DNA of 41,408 nucleotides from Spirochaetales bacterium (GTDB lineage: Bacteria > Spirochaetota > GWE2-31-10). The notes beneath the pieces were generated by a model. The model saw only the letters and a list, made by a program, of their open reading frames with translations, did not search any database and was not told the origin of the DNA. How positions within the stretch are numbered: position 1 is the first letter of the stretch; each line of letters begins with the position of its first letter. The position numbers and the translations under genes were made by a program. The stretch is from assembly GCA_022508205.1 (NCBI GenBank), contig JAFLVQ010000003.1:1-41408 (forward strand), given 5' to 3'. Below, in pieces: positions 1,645 to 39,537 of the stretch.

Positions 1645-2586
1645 ATGACCGAAAATGAAAAAAATAAAATGGCGGTGCTGATAGATAGTGAAAATGTTTC
1701 GTCAAAGAAAATCGAGTTTATAATGAAAGAATCAATTCGGCACGGTCTTCTTACCATTAAAAGAATATACGGTGATTGGACGGATTCTTCTATGACTTCA
1801 TGGAAAAAAATTTTGCCCGACTACGCAATTCAGCCTATTCAGCAGTTTAAAAATACATCCGGTAAGAATTCTACGGACAGTGCATTGATTATCGATGCAA
1901 TGGATATTTTGTATACAAGCGAAATCGACGGTTTCATCATTGTTTCCAGTGACAGCGACTACACAAAACTTGCTGTGCGGCTGAGGGAATCGGGAAAGGT
2001 TGTCGTCGGAATCGGCGAGAAGAAAACTCCCAAGTCGTTAGTAAATGCCTGCAATGAATTTCGTTATATCGAAATTTTGGAAAAGAATTTTGAAGGAATA
2101 AAAAAAGAATTGACCGAGAAAAATACAAATAATATCGGCAATGAAAAACTGAAAGAAGAAGACGAACTTTTGCAGCATTTAATAGAAGCTTATGAAATGA
2201 TAGAGCAGGAATCCGAATGGAAAAATTTAAGCAGCATTGCAAATAATTTGAAGCGTCTTGATCCTGCTTTTACTCCGAATACATACGGATTCGGCAAACT
2301 TTCTCTTTTGATGGAATCTTATTCAAAAATTTTCGAACTGCGCAAAGATCCGCACCACAGAATTATAAAAGTGCGAAAGTTGAACGACAGAGAAGCTGCC
2401 AAACTGAAAAAAAAACCGAATCGTCGTCGGCGAAGCCGCAATAATACTGTTTTGAAAAATAGTTGTGAAACTGTGAGCGTTTCGGAAATTCAACTGGAAG
2501 AGCCCGACTGCGCAGATGCAAATAATAGCACACCTGAAAAGAAATGGAATATTTTGAGTCTTTTCGGCAGCCAAAAGGAAGACTGA
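1645..2586 (+). CDS. NYN (LabA/DUF88, PIN-like) domain protein with OST-HTH/LOTUS domain
   Basis: IDSEN, YGDW, GKNSTD..LIIDAMD and VSSDSDY acidic motifs. LOTUS-like 'LKRLDPAFTPNTYGFGKLSLL'. Confidence 0.88.
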   Translation: MTENEKNKMAVLIDSENVSSKKIEFIMKESIRHGLLTIKRIYGDWTDSSMTSWKKILPDYAIQPIQQFKNTSGKNSTDSALIIDAMDILYTSEIDGFIIVSSDSDYTKLAVRLRESGKVVVGIGEKKTPKSLVNACNEFRYIEILEKNFEGIKKELTEKNTNNIGNEKLKEEDELLQHLIEAYEMIEQESEWKNLSSIANNLKRLDPAFTPNTYGFGKLSLLMESYSKIFELRKDPHHRIIKVRKLNDREAAKLKKKPNRRRRSRNNTVLKNSCETVSVSEIQLEEPDCADANNSTPEKKWNILSLFGSQKED

Positions 2587-2680
2587 AAAATTGTCGATGT
2601 TTACATTCCGAGCATTTTAGTGTATGTAACTGTATTCAATTGTTGCACTTCCGGATAGGGCAGGAGGAATTATAATTATT

Positions 2681-5557
2681 ATGGAAAAAATAAATCATAT
2701 AGAAACATTGATTGCTGATTTGGAGTCAGGAAAAATTACGTGCCGTGAAATTTTGGGAAATGTACTGCGTAATATTAAACAGTATGACAAAATTCTTGAC
2801 TGCTATATCAGTTTAAATGATGAAAAAACAATTTTGGAGCAAGCAGATGCTGCCGATAAACGCCGCAGAGAAGGCAAGGCACTTTCTAAAATCGACGGCT
2901 TGCCGATAGCGATAAAAGATAACATTACAGTATACGGAATGCCTACTACGTGCGGCTCGCGCATACTTGACGGATATAAATCTCCGTATGAAGCGACTGT
3001 CGCCGAGTCTCTTCGCAAGGTCGGTGCAATTATTTTGGGAAAAACAAACATGGACGAATTTGCTATGGGGTCTACTTCGGAAACGTCCGCATATCGCAAA
3101 ACCCGCAATCCCTATGATGCTCGGCGCGTTCCCGGCGGTTCTTCCGGTGGTTCGGCGGCGGCAGTCGCAGCAGGATTAGCTCCGTTTGCACTCGGAAGCG
3201 ATACCGGCGGTTCCATTCGTCAGCCGGCTGCGTTTTGCGGAGTTGTTGGAATAAAACCGACTTACGGGTTGGTTTCCCGTTACGGACTTGTTTCTTATGC
3301 ATCATCATTAGACCAGATAGGAACATTTGCCGGTGATGTGTACGGTGCTGCACTGCTTTTGAATTTTATTGCGAAAAAAGATGATAAAGATTCGACTTCG
3401 ATTTATTCATTTGACGGTGATTATACGCAGATGCTGCATCGGTCCATTGCCGGTAAAAAAATTGCATATTTTAAAGAATTTGTCGGTGAAGGTCTGCGAC
3501 CGGAATTAAAAGCAAAATTCGATGATTCGGCAGAAATATTGAAAAAACTCGGAGCTGTTGTGGAAGCGGTGGATTTCCCGGCGATTAAATACGCAATTGC
3601 TGTTTATTATTTCATTGCAACAGCCGAAGCTGCCGGAAATTTGGAACGGTATGACGGCGTAAAATATGGGTTTCGCAGTGATAAGCAGCAGAATTATGAA
3701 GAGATGCTTTTGTCAAGCCGCAGTTACGGTTTTGGAAAAGAAGTAAAGAAAAGAATTATGCTCGGAAATTTCGTGCTTTCTTCGGGTTACTATGATGCAT
3801 ATTATCGAAAAAGTCAAAAACTGCGAACATACATAATGAAAGAAATGGAAAAAGTTTTTGAGAAGTACGATTTTGTCATTGCACCGACAACTCCCGATAT
3901 AGCGTTTAAATTCGGTGAAGGCGACAGCGACCCGATGAAATTGTATCTCAGCGATATTACGACAGTACTTGCCAATTTAGCCGGGATTCCGGCATTGTCC
4001 GTGCCTTGCGGAACGGTTGATGAAATGCCGGTTGGTTTGCAGATTTTCGGGAAACCGTTGGATGAAGAAGGAATTTTAAATGCGGCTTATCAATTTGAGC
4101 AGGCTTTAAAACTTGATTTGGCACCGGATTTATCAAAACTCGCTGATTTGAAAACCGAAGCGAAAACCGAAAATGCCGAACATGAACCCGTGAAACGTGC
4201 GTCTGCGGTTTACACAAAAGAATTTATCCAGTCAATTTCCGATGGTTACATGAACCGCACAGCCGAGAACAGCAGGGTTCTTTGCCGCGAATTGGAGTCT
4301 TTGGTCGGTAAAAAAGTTATGATGTCGGGCTGCATTTATAAAATCAACAGTCTGGGCGGAATAGAATTTTATACACTGCGGGACAGAACGGGAATGACTC
4401 AGCTTGTGCTTGAAGGCGATTTGGCGAGAACGAAAATTTCGCCTATGTCTGCAGTGGAAGTTTACGGAAAGGTAACAAAAGAGGAACGAAGCCCTTATAA
4501 AAATATCGAAATAAAAGTTGAGAAACTTACTGTGCTTGCAGCTGCTGCACCGGAACTGCCGTTCCAAATAAGCGGTGATTTGGGGAAACTCAATTTGCCT
4601 ACGGTTCTTGACCATCGTCAATTATCTTTGCGAAATACGGAAATTGCGGATATTTTCAAGATTCAGGCTGAAATTGCCGGATCGTTTTCGGAGTTTCTGC
4701 GTCAGAATGAATTTATCGAAATAAAGACTTCAAAAATCGGAGCAAACGAAACCGAAGGCGGTACTAATGTATTCGAAATTAAATATTTCGATAGAAGTGC
4801 GTTTCTTGCACAATCTCCGCAGTTTTATAAACAAATGCTTGTCGGTACATCATTTGAGCGTGTATTTGAAGTTGGGCCGGTATTTCGTGCGGAAAAGCAT
4901 AATACAGTTCGCCATTTGAATGAATATACCAGCTTGGACTTTGAAATGGGTTACATCAAAGATGAGCAGGACGTAATCGATGTTCAAGAGCGTATGATTA
5001 AATATATATTGAAAAATATCAAAGACAAATATTCCGATGTATTGGAACGGCTTGGTGTAGATATGAAAATTCCCGATGCAATTCCGAGAATTCATTTCAT
5101 TCAGGCACTTGAAATTGCGGAAAAACTCGGTGTTAAAGATATGGACGGGGATTTGTCGCCGGAAGGTGAAAAAACAGTTTGCCGCTATATAGAGGAAAAA
5201 ACCGGAAGCCAGTTTGTTTATATTGTCGGGTATCCGGTTAAAAAGCGTCCTATGTATACAATGCCTGACGAAAGACTGCCGGGATACACTCGTTCGTTTG
5301 ATTTATTGTACAAAGGTTTGGAAATTACGTCCGGAGGTCAGCGTATTCATGATTATGAACAGCTGAAAAGCAGTATGATTGCCAAAGGATTGAATCCGGC
5401 TGCATACAAACCTTATCTTGATGCCTTTAAATTCGGAATGCCTCCTCACGGCGGACTGGGAATGGGCTTGGAACGGCTTACAATGCGTCTGCTTGAACTC
5501 AATAATATTCGTGAAGCAACCTTATTCCCTCGTGATATTGGCCGCCTTGAACCGTAG
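2681..5557 (+). CDS. gatA-aspS: Fusion: Asp/Glu-tRNA amidotransferase subunit A (aa ~1-477) + ~55-aa linker + short archaeal-type (probably non-discriminating) aspartyl-tRNA synthetase (aa ~532-958)
   Basis: Amidase signature IAIKDN, GKTNMDEFAMGS, PGGSSGGS, GSDTGGSIRQPA, RYDGVKYG, EVKKRIMLG. Then an OB-fold (LRDRTG), LAQSPQFYKQ, motif 2 FRAEKHNT.RHLNEY, EITSGGQRIH and motif 3 GMPPHGGLGMGLERL. No stop between the two domains. Confidence 0.93.
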   Translation: MEKINHIETLIADLESGKITCREILGNVLRNIKQYDKILDCYISLNDEKTILEQADAADKRRREGKALSKIDGLPIAIKDNITVYGMPTTCGSRILDGYKSPYEATVAESLRKVGAIILGKTNMDEFAMGSTSETSAYRKTRNPYDARRVPGGSSGGSAAAVAAGLAPFALGSDTGGSIRQPAAFCGVVGIKPTYGLVSRYGLVSYASSLDQIGTFAGDVYGAALLLNFIAKKDDKDSTSIYSFDGDYTQMLHRSIAGKKIAYFKEFVGEGLRPELKAKFDDSAEILKKLGAVVEAVDFPAIKYAIAVYYFIATAEAAGNLERYDGVKYGFRSDKQQNYEEMLLSSRSYGFGKEVKKRIMLGNFVLSSGYYDAYYRKSQKLRTYIMKEMEKVFEKYDFVIAPTTPDIAFKFGEGDSDPMKLYLSDITTVLANLAGIPALSVPCGTVDEMPVGLQIFGKPLDEEGILNAAYQFEQALKLDLAPDLSKLADLKTEAKTENAEHEPVKRASAVYTKEFIQSISDGYMNRTAENSRVLCRELESLVGKKVMMSGCIYKINSLGGIEFYTLRDRTGMTQLVLEGDLARTKISPMSAVEVYGKVTKEERSPYKNIEIKVEKLTVLAAAAPELPFQISGDLGKLNLPTVLDHRQLSLRNTEIADIFKIQAEIAGSFSEFLRQNEFIEIKTSKIGANETEGGTNVFEIKYFDRSAFLAQSPQFYKQMLVGTSFERVFEVGPVFRAEKHNTVRHLNEYTSLDFEMGYIKDEQDVIDVQERMIKYILKNIKDKYSDVLERLGVDMKIPDAIPRIHFIQALEIAEKLGVKDMDGDLSPEGEKTVCRYIEEKTGSQFVYIVGYPVKKRPMYTMPDERLPGYTRSFDLLYKGLEITSGGQRIHDYEQLKSSMIAKGLNPAAYKPYLDAFKFGMPPHGGLGMGLERLTMRLLELNNIREATLFPRDIGRLEP

Positions 5558-5582
5558 TTTTCAGCAAATAGGAGTGCAAAAA

Positions 5583-6803
5583 ATGAATAGTTGTTTAAAT
5601 ACATTAAAAGAGCGCGGTTTTTTTCAGCAATGTACTGATATTGAAGGACTTTCGGCTTTGATGGATAAAGGTCCGGTAACATTTTACGTAGGCTGCGATC
5701 CAACGGGAGTGAGTTTGCACATTGGTCACATGGTGCCGTTTTTTGCACTACGTCATTTAAAAAATGCCGGTCATCACGGTATTGCACTGATTGGCGGAGG
5801 AACGGCTCGTATCGGAGATCCGTCGGGCAAAACGGAAATGCGCAAAATGCTGACTTATGAAGCAATTGACCGAAATGTAGAAAAGATTAAAGCGCAGCTG
5901 GATAGATTTTTGAGGTTTGATAATGAAACTGCATTTGCCGTCAACAACAAAGATTGGCTTGCGGATTTGAATTATATCGATTTTTTGCGTGATATAGGTT
6001 CGTGTTTCTCGGTAAACAGAATGCTCACTTTTGAAGCGTATAAGAAACGAATGGAAACAGGGTTAAGCTTTTTAGAATTCAATTATCAATTGCTGCAAAG
6101 TTATGATTTTCTGAAGCTACATGAAAAATACGGCTGTAATCTGCAAATTGGCGGGGATGATCAGTGGGGAAATATGGTAGCCGGAGTAGATTTGATTCGC
6201 CGCAAAATGGGAAATGATCGTGAAGTTTATGCATTGACATTTCCTTTAATTACTCGTTCCGACGGAAAGAAAATGGGAAAAACCGAAAAAGGTGCGCTGT
6301 TTCTTGACCCGGAACTTACACCGGTTTATGATTTTTTCCAGTATTGGCGAAATATAGCAGATCAGGATGTGCGAAAATGTATGCTTTTATTTACATTTTT
6401 GTCGATTGATGAAATCGATGAAATTTGTGCCGGTGACATAAACAAGGCAAAAGAACGTTTGGCTTGGGAAGTTACTGCCGAAATTCATGGAAAAGATGCA
6501 GCGGATAATGCGCTTGCCGGTGCTAAAGCTGCATTCGGCGGCGGTGACAGTATCGAGATGATGCCGACTACGGAAATTCACGAAGAACGCTTAAAGAGCG
6601 GAATCGGCATTCTCGATTTAATGGTAGAATGTAAAATGGCGGCAACAAAAAGCGAAGTACGCCGTTTGATTTCGCAAGGTGGCTGCAAAATTAACGGTGA
6701 AAAAATTACCGATGACAAAATGATTGTTGATAATTCCTATGTTACCGACAAGGGAATTATTTTACGAATGGGGAAAAAGAAAGTTCACAGGATAAAAGTT
6801 TAA
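5583..6803 (+). CDS. tyrS: Tyrosine--tRNA ligase
   Basis: YVGCDPT..LHIGH, IGDPSGK, QIGGDDQWGN, KMGKT and a C-terminal S4 domain. Start moved to ATG 5583 behind SD GGAG. Confidence 0.96.
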   Translation: MNSCLNTLKERGFFQQCTDIEGLSALMDKGPVTFYVGCDPTGVSLHIGHMVPFFALRHLKNAGHHGIALIGGGTARIGDPSGKTEMRKMLTYEAIDRNVEKIKAQLDRFLRFDNETAFAVNNKDWLADLNYIDFLRDIGSCFSVNRMLTFEAYKKRMETGLSFLEFNYQLLQSYDFLKLHEKYGCNLQIGGDDQWGNMVAGVDLIRRKMGNDREVYALTFPLITRSDGKKMGKTEKGALFLDPELTPVYDFFQYWRNIADQDVRKCMLLFTFLSIDEIDEICAGDINKAKERLAWEVTAEIHGKDAADNALAGAKAAFGGGDSIEMMPTTEIHEERLKSGIGILDLMVECKMAATKSEVRRLISQGGCKINGEKITDDKMIVDNSYVTDKGIILRMGKKKVHRIKV

Positions 6804-39369: not shown

Positions 39370-39442
39370 GCCGGCTTAGCTCAATTGGTAGAGCAGCTGA
39401 CTTGTAATCAGCAGGTTGAGGGTTCAATTCCTTTAGCCGGCT
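39370..39442 (+). tRNA. tRNA-Thr(TGT)
   Basis: Acceptor stem GCCGGCT/AGCCGGC, D-arm, anticodon loop CT-TGT-AA, GGTTCAATTCC. CCA not encoded. Confidence 0.96.
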
Positions 39443-39455
39443 ATATTTTAAAAAA

Positions 39456-39536
<81 letters not shown>

Positions 39537-39537
<1 letters not shown>

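Follow-up and report, generated by a model that had tools for sequence, protein, structure and literature searches.

A natural GatA–AspRS fusion with a GatC–GatB partner in Spirochaetota, a candidate covalent Asn-transamidosome

Indirect Asn-tRNA synthesis yields a mischarged intermediate, Asp-tRNA-Asn, which has to be kept from the ribosome. In the available part of PMC3367201, the known transamidosomes are described as transient complexes glued together by tRNA, with a stability and a mechanism that depend on the species; in Thermus, the proteins of the complex are four in number, separate, and joined through tRNA, and bacterial GatCAB, the tRNA-dependent amidotransferase (AdT), is normally described as dual. 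In genomes that encode both GlnRS and AsnRS, e.g. those of Deinococcus, Thermus, and Bdellovibrio, GatCAB makes Asn on tRNA, and a second, archaeal-type non-discriminating AspRS is possible; 67 of 547 genera have this combination of GlnRS, AsnRS, and GatCAB (available part of PMC4206432). Here we analyze a gene that joins GatA and AspRS in one reading frame (positions 2681-5557, plus strand). It is located in a stretch of 41,408 nucleotides (nt), called “the window” below, from the metagenome-assembled genome (MAG) of a Spirochaetales bacterium (GCA_022508205.1, contig JAFLVQ010000003.1). The gene and a second fusion gene, GatC::GatB, probably encode a dedicated two-polypeptide, four-domain Asn-transamidosome for tRNA-dependent Asn synthesis that does not cover Gln.

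Covalent links between an aminoacyl-tRNA synthetase and the next enzyme have been described, i.e. ErdS (AspRS plus DUF2156) and LysX (LysRS plus MprF), which feed other pathways (available parts of PMC9437257 and PMC13219428). Like them, the fusion protein of the window has a synthetase tethered to the next enzyme, so that the aminoacyl-tRNA would be handed over within one protein. ErdS and LysX transfer the amino acid to lipids, whereas here it is proposed to be converted on the tRNA and to stay in translation. The nearest published case comes from the laboratory, a mutant of M. smegmatis with fused gatC and gatA (PMC7541841, available part). No description of a natural GatA-AspRS, GatB-AspRS, or GatC-GatB fusion was found in a full-text search with thin coverage of subscription journals, in line with the first-pass annotation of the window, which knew of no natural GatA-AspRS fusion. 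However, the architecture itself turned out to be present in sequence databases yet unrecognized, under the names “GatA”, “hypothetical”, or “nondiscriminating aspartyl-tRNA synthetase”.

The listing of open reading frames and the translation agree on a single frame of 958 codons at 2681-5557, with zero internal stops and a TAG stop codon, as originally claimed; the product has a mass of 106.8 kDa. Three Pfam domains were found in it, i.e. Amidase at residues 24-466 (E 2.9e-145), the tRNA_anti-codon OB-fold domain at residues 550-619 (PF01336; nt 4328-4537), and tRNA-synt_2, the class II catalytic core, at residues 641-952 (PF00152, E 1.7e-83; nt 4601-5536). The GatA (glutaminase) domain comprises residues 14-477 (nt 2720-4111), which cover positions 5-465 of the 466 positions of the NCBIfam gatA profile TIGR00132 with 591.9 bits (cut-off 481.1). 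K79 (nt 2915-2917), S154 (nt 3140-3142), and S178 (nt 3212-3214) are invariant in 58 fused homologues and have identical numbers in S. aureus GatA (alignment to 2df4_A). We take them to be the catalytic Ser-cisSer-Lys triad of the amidase signature. The profile score and the invariant residues confirm the prediction of a full GatA with its Lys/Ser/Ser motifs.

The C-terminal part, residues 531-958 (nt 4271-5554), is classified as an archaeal-type aspartate--tRNA(Asn) ligase by NF003483 (534.5 bits, cut-off 353) and by TIGR00458 (aspS_nondisc; 420.6 bits, cut-off 368.4). The bacterial aspS models matched the fusion protein in split pieces only, and these were below the cut-offs. Three AspRS motifs are invariant in the 58 fused proteins: QSPQ at residues 711-714 (nt 4811-4822), FRAE at residues 735-738, and the GLG.GLER block at about 925-932. 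The best PDB match is the non-discriminating AspRS2 of T. thermophilus (1n9w, which is also part of the transamidosome entry 3kfu; E 2.6e-103). The domain of 428 amino acids (aa) aligns end to end with the 422 aa of AspRS2, in agreement with the earlier description of a full short AspRS without GAD insertion, a marker that sets bacterial-type AspRS apart (available part of PMC4206432).

A short L1 loop, EERSPY, is located at residues 601-606 (nt 4481-4498), so that both the loop Pro and the QSPQ motif noted before are indeed present. P605 aligns with the Pro of AspRS2 and with a Lys in the AspRS of T. kodakarensis, which we take to be a discriminating enzyme. The L1-loop Pro and a second signature position are, presumably, those that mutational studies have tied to tRNA-Asn recognition. 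We estimated their conservation in 72 fused rows, 13 from genome loci and 59 from database proteins, including some duplicates. The loop motif E-x-R-S-P-[YF] has the Pro in 66 rows, and the second signature (beta-1) position is a His in 59. For comparison, the loop of the stand-alone AspRS is four residues longer and Gln occupies its second signature position. These family and residue data support the assignment of the AspRS half to the non-discriminating type.

To estimate the spread of the fusion, a sample of 401 genomes from the phylum of the window was analyzed. The fusion is found whole and in one frame in 32 of them (957-991 aa, 48-95% identity), and it is cut by contig ends in three further genomes (G154, G161, and G147). 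The term “carriers” denotes 36 genomes, i.e. these 35 plus G018, which is discussed below. A query with the junction (residues 400-640) returned 114 proteins, about 65 of which combine Amidase, OB, and tRNA-synt_2 domains (P0002-P0066, clusters at 90% identity). They are mostly 936-1011 aa long, are 43-89% identical at the junction, and were drawn from NCBI, JGI, ENA, and Logan. Their sources are Spirochaetes/Spirochaetota MAGs and one MAG of a Chrysiogenales bacterium, the protein of which (P0066) is partial. A scan of contigs gave at least 600 matches, from which 80 loci were kept, including one spirochaete fusion, and is no guide to the spread outside the phylum.

Contigs of two sequencing runs span the linker region without indel, which answers the question of whether the junction might be misassembled. 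The contig from run X1 (16,176 nt) covers 2400-5900 with 12 substitutions and no indel, and that from run X2 (740 nt) covers 4059-4798, again with no indel; both runs belong to one study, which is possibly the source of the window itself. An apparent triple fusion GatA::AspRS::GatC of 1116 aa in G282 was rejected, because its frame arises artificially from a run of N that lies between AspRS and GatB.

The two enzymes are connected by an inter-domain linker of about 53 residues (478-530, nt 4112-4270), which was characterized by column conservation and the AlphaFold2 predicted local distance difference test (pLDDT). P482 is conserved at 98%, and the stretch of about 488-510 is charged and variable, with residues 492-510 (nt 4154-4210) modelled as disordered (pLDDT < 50). 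It is followed by a fusion-specific conserved motif, YTKEFIQSISDGYMNR, at residues 511-526 (nt 4211-4258), with the pattern Y511-x4-I516-x3-S520-x2-Y523-x2-R526. The conservation of its positions is 88-98% (Y511 88%, I516 97%, S520 98%, Y523 97%), and the motif sits N-terminal to the start of T. thermophilus AspRS2. R532 and L538, at the beginning of the AspRS, are invariant. The linker contains a single Met, M524, which is the most frequent residue at its position with only 45% of the sequences. AlphaFold2, run on the alignment of the fused proteins, gave folded bodies for both enzymes and a helix at 513-524, with a mean pLDDT of 76.2 and a predicted template modelling score (pTM) of 0.54. 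According to this model, the linker combines a flexible tether of about 20 residues with a helix that is conserved and specific to the fusion.

A search for gatB in the genome of the window (G000; 2.23 Mb, 207 contigs, 86% complete) revealed a second fusion. An open reading frame of 592 aa (66 kDa) on contig C190 (C190:7950-9725; L005:1483-3258, plus strand) has about 95 GatC-like residues at its start. Pfam found GatC at residues 20-92 (24.9 bits, cut-off 23), GatB_N at 120-406, and GatB_Yqey at 447-590, and the NCBIfam gatB model matched with 641.7 bits. This GatC::GatB is full length in 34 and cut in two of the 401 genomes, and these are exactly the 35 genomes with GatA::AspRS plus G018, i.e. 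co-occurrence is 36/36. The remaining 16 matches at E <= 1e-150 comprise the GatB part only. In 26 of the 36 carriers, GatC::GatB lies on the same strand directly downstream of GatA::AspRS. The gap between the alignment ends is 5-212 nt in 23 genomes and 310 and 643 nt in two, and it contains the run of N in G282. In G187, the two open reading frames overlap by 4 nt. The two genes are on separate contigs in the genus of the window and in G056, G104, G087, and G018.

The genes gatB and gatC have not disappeared; the two have been joined into one gene, which was relocated in the genus of the window. The earlier conclusion that the usual gatCAB operon is broken up does not hold, because the genome retains a canonical gatA-gatB pair and a gatC elsewhere, and the gatC/gatB partner of the fusion is encoded on C190. 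The idea of a covalently tethered Asn-transamidosome, in contrast, is supported by the protein families, the partner, and the gene inventories.

The structure of a complex of GatA (residues 1-490) with GatC::GatB (residues 1-420) was predicted. The score was 0.94 in all three runs, a mark that 58 of 80 solved complexes and 2 of 110 mismatched pairs attain, and the best of three controls had 0.00. The partner has a pLDDT of 85-86, the contacts agree to at least 97%, and residues 7-96 of the GatC part are predicted to touch and wrap GatA. Because structures of GatCAB have already been solved, this result shows likeness and is not an independent proof. Relatives of GatC::GatB with 581-584 aa (45-48% identity for residues 1-170) carry the names of Candidatus Uabimicrobium amorphum and Ca. 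Uabimicrobium sp. HlEnr_7. Among the matches of the junction search, there was no GatA::AspRS on a contig as large as theirs, and therefore GatC::GatB may also exist on its own.

To characterize the background in which the two fusions occur, we compiled inventories of the relevant genes. In addition to the fused set, G000 has a canonical gatA (481 aa) on C109 and, overlapping with it, the start of a canonical gatB that continues on C193, as well as a canonical gatC (96 aa, C197). A stand-alone archaeal-type AspRS of 445 aa is encoded on C166 (NF003483, 492 bits), and AsnRS (653 bits), LysRS, an EpmA-like protein, and one GluRS are also present. GlnRS and AsnA were not found in searches of this 86% complete genome. 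An AsnB-family protein was identified with TIGR01536 (473.7 bits); its best match is an EPS-type amidotransferase model, under the cut-off of that model. ARAGORN predicted 28 tRNAs, including a single tRNA-Asn(GUU) and a single tRNA-Asp, which have U1-A72 and G1-C72, respectively, and two tRNA-Gln, both with U1-A72. U1-A72 is a requirement for bacterial GatCAB (available part of PMC4206432). The fused and the canonical proteins of G000 have identities of 47% for GatA, 57% and 39% for the N and C parts of GatB, 21% for GatC, and 41% for AspRS (fused versus stand-alone), which marks the paralogues as old.

The comparison of carriers revealed a division of AdT content. Canonical GatA and GatB exist besides the fused set in nine of the 36 carriers (G000, G002, G096, G140, G154, G044, G161, G104, and G087), and the fused set is the only AdT in 27. 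All nine retained gatA copies score above the family cut-off. GlnRS was found in none of these nine and in 25 of the 27 that have the fused AdT only; the other two are G147 (86% complete) and G267 (92% complete). AsnRS was above the cut-off in 32 of 35 carriers searched and in 47 of 50 genomes in all (35 carriers and 15 non-carriers), and also in G000. A second AspRS is encoded by all carriers except G133 and G351, both of which are 85% complete, and the fused AspRS was never seen as the sole AspRS of a genome. In the order of the window, 15 of 17 carriers have the stand-alone archaeal-type AspRS, and 0 of 20 genomes have a bacterial AspRS. In families f32 and f42, 18 of 19 carriers and 30 of 31 genomes have a bacterial-type AspRS.

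Genes of the AsnB family occur in 20 of the 36 carriers and 7 of the 15 non-carriers; AsnB was thus discarded as an explanatory variable. AsnA was found in 5 of 36 carriers and in one of 15 non-carriers. Neither gene was present in 14 of the 36 carriers, including G044 (97% complete), G067 (95%), and G297 (96%). The non-carriers are in keeping with the same scheme. Those of f32 have GlnRS, AsnRS, bacterial AspRS, and canonical GatA, and G119 encodes GlnRS, AsnRS, and AsnA but neither GatA nor GatB. One canonical GatCAB and no GlnRS were found in both G032 and G112.

The canonical GatCAB is therefore kept only in carriers without GlnRS, although these encode a second, complete AdT, and the fused module is kept regardless of GlnRS, AsnRS, AsnA, or AsnB. 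The simplest reading is that the fused AdT skips tRNA-Gln and has a job of its own on tRNA-Asn. From these data we infer the following activities, tRNA specificity, stoichiometry, and channelling. The 107-kDa bifunctional protein would consist of an N-terminal GatA glutaminase tethered to a C-terminal AspRS of the non-discriminating type, and it would form a two-polypeptide, four-domain particle with GatC::GatB. The AspRS domain would load Asp onto tRNA-Asn, the acceptor end would then move to the GatB site for phosphorylation, and the tethered GatA would free ammonia from glutamine, resulting in Asn-tRNA-Asn. As AspRS is a dimer, the expected particle is (GatA-AspRS)2(GatC-GatB)2, with one amidotransferase fixed per AspRS subunit. 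The module would be devoted to the tRNA-dependent formation of Asn and Asn-tRNA, a role known from Thermus and Deinococcus. Gln-tRNA-Gln would be supplied by the separate canonical GatCAB in the genus of the window and by GlnRS in most other carriers.

A wider interpretation is that the two jobs of GatCAB have been split between paralogous enzymes, with a canonical GatCAB (or GlnRS) for Gln and the covalent particle for Asn. The particle would be Asn-specific through delivery in cis, its tethered AspRS being a loader reserved for tRNA-Asn, and Asp-tRNA-Asn would never be released from it. We put this forward tentatively, as a reading that is somewhat less likely than not. With AspRS fused independently to GatA, GatB, and GatC in different phyla, evolution would, if this is true, have met the fidelity problem of indirect aminoacylation repeatedly by capturing the mischarged intermediate covalently.

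Several observations weigh against a dedicated Asn-transamidosome. The L1-loop Pro is absent in 6 of the 72 fused rows, the genus of the window and its kin carry Tyr instead of His at the second signature position, and the AlphaFold2 model is of moderate quality, with the values given above. AsnRS is present in nearly all carriers (32 of the 35 searched, plus G000), so that the mere charging of tRNA-Asn does not require the module. A gene for AsnA or of the AsnB family is found in 22 of the 36 carriers, G000 included, so that the module is not the only possible source of Asn in those genomes. The non-carriers G032 and G112 (family f3) have only a stand-alone AspRS and the canonical GatCAB, with neither AsnA nor AsnB; therefore, the stand-alone AspRS may also be non-discriminating. 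The pattern of GlnRS versus canonical GatCAB is clustered, with three changes on the GatC::GatB tree, one of which is forced by well-supported branches. One to three independent contrasts are too few for any statistical test, so that the argument is one from necessity and not a statistic. Lastly, the GatA of G018 belongs to the fused clade and ends with a stop, and no adjoining AspRS domain was found on the short contigs of this genome.

Part of this evidence would also fit a general-purpose AdT that is incidentally tethered, i.e. one that serves both tRNA-Asn and tRNA-Gln, with the tether speeding the Asn branch and the canonical GatCAB being a leftover. The fused set is the only GatA/GatB in 27 of 36 carriers, both tRNA-Gln genes of G000 likewise have U1-A72, the fused GatB retains its full cradle and YqeY tail domains, and the complementarity rests on one to three independent transitions. 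G147 and G267 have only the fused AdT and showed no GlnRS, but both genomes are incomplete (86% and 92%). The gene inventories speak against such an enzyme: the nine GlnRS-less carriers all keep canonical gatA-gatB, and of the 27 carriers in which this pair is missing, 25 have GlnRS. Nor does the canonical GatA look like a decaying gene, as it forms a clade of its own (support 100; 8 of the 9 copies are in the tree) and exceeds the family cut-off in 9 of 9 cases. We therefore regard a general-purpose enzyme as unlikely. The presence of AsnRS, and often of AsnA or AsnB, makes the module look redundant for translation, and fusions of synthetases that feed other pathways are known (PMC9437257, available part), so that Asn-tRNA or Asp-tRNA might be supplied to the envelope or to a natural product, or the protein might be a regulator, as with ErdS and LysX. 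Yet every fused partner is an AdT subunit above its family cut-off, and the loci examined have no conserved transferase-like neighbour, the neighbours being asnS, tyrS, and gatC::gatB. A role outside translation is thus highly improbable.

Two further alternatives concern the protein itself. The fusion could exist on the gene level only, with the product being processed, or started internally, to give separate GatA and AspRS, and the modelled disorder of residues 492-510 would be compatible with a protease-sensitive site. This is very unlikely, as the frame is open across the linker in 32 full-length genomes of 48-95% identity, the linker motif is conserved (Y511, I516, S520, and Y523, 88-98%), and the lone Met of the linker, M524, occurs in only 45% of the sequences; moreover, parts that acted separately would not be held in a common frame by anything. 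In a fragmented MAG with 207 contigs and 86% completeness, one might suspect a chimeric join or the loss of a stop between neighbouring genes. However, the same frame in 32 genomes, the about 65 clusters from four database sources, and the indel-free junction contigs from two runs refute such an assembly or annotation artefact for practical purposes, and the fusion is a real gene.

Phylogenetic trees were calculated for both halves, with branch support from the Shimodaira–Hasegawa-like approximate likelihood ratio test (SH-aLRT). The fused GatA (13 sequences plus that of G018) is one clade with a support of 100, the canonical GatA of the carriers is a separate clade (100; 8 of 9 copies), and the canonical GatA of other spirochaete families is a separate group (90). 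The fused AspRS is likewise one clade (100), apart from the stand-alone AspRS (100). Because each half forms one clade, a single origin of the GatA::AspRS fusion is likely. No donor can be named, since the base of the AspRS tree is poorly supported. The fused copies of f32 and f42 nest inside the order of the window (SH-aLRT 99; unrooted tree), and relatives that are non-carriers keep the canonical GatA, which suggests that the two-gene module moved between lineages within the phylum and displaced the canonical GatCAB in a GlnRS-positive background. In G018, the GatA of the fused clade with its stop is located at C2:80185-82538, and asnA adjoins asnS in the same genome. In this lineage, AsnA may be taking over from the tRNA-dependent route.

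The closest known counterpart is the Asn-transamidosome of Thermus (AspRS2, GatCAB, and tRNA-Asn; 3kfu). Its four protein modules are the same, the fused AspRS domain is closest to AspRS2, and the GatA and GatB parts match chains E and F of 3kfu. In contrast to Thermus, the spirochaete AspRS is covalently joined to GatA, and GatC to GatB, which would force one AdT per AspRS subunit, a ratio that differs from that of the Thermus particle. The conserved linker helix is predicted in the fused protein only and has no equivalent in AspRS2. Both systems share a presumed tRNA-dependent Asn formation despite the presence of AsnRS (available parts of PMC4206432 and PMC3367201). Most carriers with only the fused AdT resemble the Deinococcus/Thermus/Bdellovibrio type in having GlnRS and AsnRS; the AdT of the latter is an ordinary three-subunit enzyme. 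The best reading of the sequence data is that the spirochaete system works like a transamidosome, as a new covalent two-polypeptide variant and not as a tRNA-scaffolded assembly of separate proteins.

Clostridial aspS-gatC-gatA-gatB operons also have an extra archaeal-type AspRS with a short Pro loop that is coupled to a dedicated gatCAB. An operon of this type with a T-box, aspS-gatCAB of the C. acetobutylicum type, was reported by Saad et al. 2012, as cited in the available part of PMC4206432. The operon AspRS shows 43-51% identity to the fused AspRS domain, above the stand-alone AspRS of G000 (41%), and its loop signature includes Pro in 7 of 10 and His in 7 of 10 sequences. The clostridial genes differ in being separate and in having a T-box leader in three of six loci scanned. 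These leaders lie upstream of the archaeal-type aspS at L097:1970-2229, L100:2027-2367, and L164:2112-2394, with 97-115 bits (gathering score 93).

A covalent link between AspRS and an AdT subunit is already catalogued as NF009460 (PRK12820), bifunctional AspRS/GatC. In this family AspRS is joined to GatC in a model of 723 positions, whereas the protein of the window (P0001) has an N-terminal GatA; NF009460 is absent from the 25 best of the 45 families matching P0001, and Pfam detected no GatC domain in it. The literature search found no paper on the NF009460 family. In a MAG of Ruminococcus sp. RGIG8501 (JAGAJO010000009; L106:3908-6787, plus strand), we observed a 960-aa GatB::AspRS directly after a separate gatA. 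It has the domains GatB_N, GatB_Yqey, OB, and tRNA-synt_2, and a search with its junction gave 181 proteins. Of the 120 listed, nearly all have the four domains and a length of about 955 aa. The sources include named isolates (Ruminococcus sp. Marseille-P6503 and Ruminococcus sp. YE71), Hominimerdicola, and Oscillospiraceae. As in the spirochaete protein, an archaeal-type AspRS is C-terminal to an AdT subunit; this subunit is GatB, and GatA is separate and encoded upstream. The AspRS of GatB::AspRS falls in a different clade, and this fusion thus arose independently. By their domain content, AspRS is thus tied to each of the three AdT subunits (GatA, GatB, and GatC) in different lineages. Other Gat fusions in the databases were seen among P0067, P0096, and P0085, i.e. 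two proteins of 592 aa with Amidase and GatC and one of 554 aa with Amidase and GatB_N.

The natural tethering of AspRS to GatA and of GatC to GatB offers a ready test of what is gained by tethering in rate, fidelity, stability, and stoichiometry, by comparison of fused and split enzymes. The particle should assemble without tRNA, which would suit structural work. The inventories suggest a bacterial AdT that serves Asn and not Gln, alongside a canonical AdT for Gln. About 65 clusters of GatA::AspRS and well over 100 of GatB::AspRS are labelled simply “GatA”, “GatB”, or “hypothetical”. As the fusions are labelled by one of their parts, pathway reconstructions that count aspS and gat names misread these genomes.

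In the window, the fusion gene is preceded by a Shine-Dalgarno-like AGGAGG at 2663-2668 (plus strand), 12 nt 5′ of the ATG at 2681, as read from the sequence. It is followed by tyrS (tyrosine--tRNA ligase, 5583-6803, plus strand; TIGR00234, 415.9 bits), which starts 25 nt past the stop codon of the fusion gene and has its own AGGAG. No terminator-like site was seen between the two genes, which are probably co-transcribed. A scan for promoters and terminators gave counts no higher than in shuffled sequence, and there was no RNA run among the public runs listed for the stretch, all three being DNA from one study labelled gut metagenome. Rfam gave zero matches to riboswitches, T-box leaders included, at E <= 0.01 in 10 spirochaete loci (66 kb), and no tRNA genes were found beside the module in 11 loci.

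In the genus of the window, tyrS occupies the slot in which most relatives carry gatC::gatB. Two further genera of its family have asnS as the immediate upstream neighbour of the fusion (G044:C43:60248-66423 and contig C79 of G161); the order in G044 is asnS, 90 nt, gatA::aspS, 46 nt, gatC::gatB. The gene directly upstream of the fusion in the window (1645-2583, plus strand) encodes a 313-aa protein with an NYN domain (E 4.8e-36) and OST-HTH/LOTUS, a predicted RNA-binding nuclease, and is itself preceded by hflK and hflC. Genes for tRNA-Thr(UGU) and tRNA-Tyr(GUA), 14 nt apart, are located at 39370-39537 (plus strand) of the window. Elsewhere in the genome, the LysRS gene (C48:1924-4032, minus strand; L009) encodes a protein of 702 aa, in which the ligase models stop at residue 487 and are followed by a C-terminal extension of about 215 residues.

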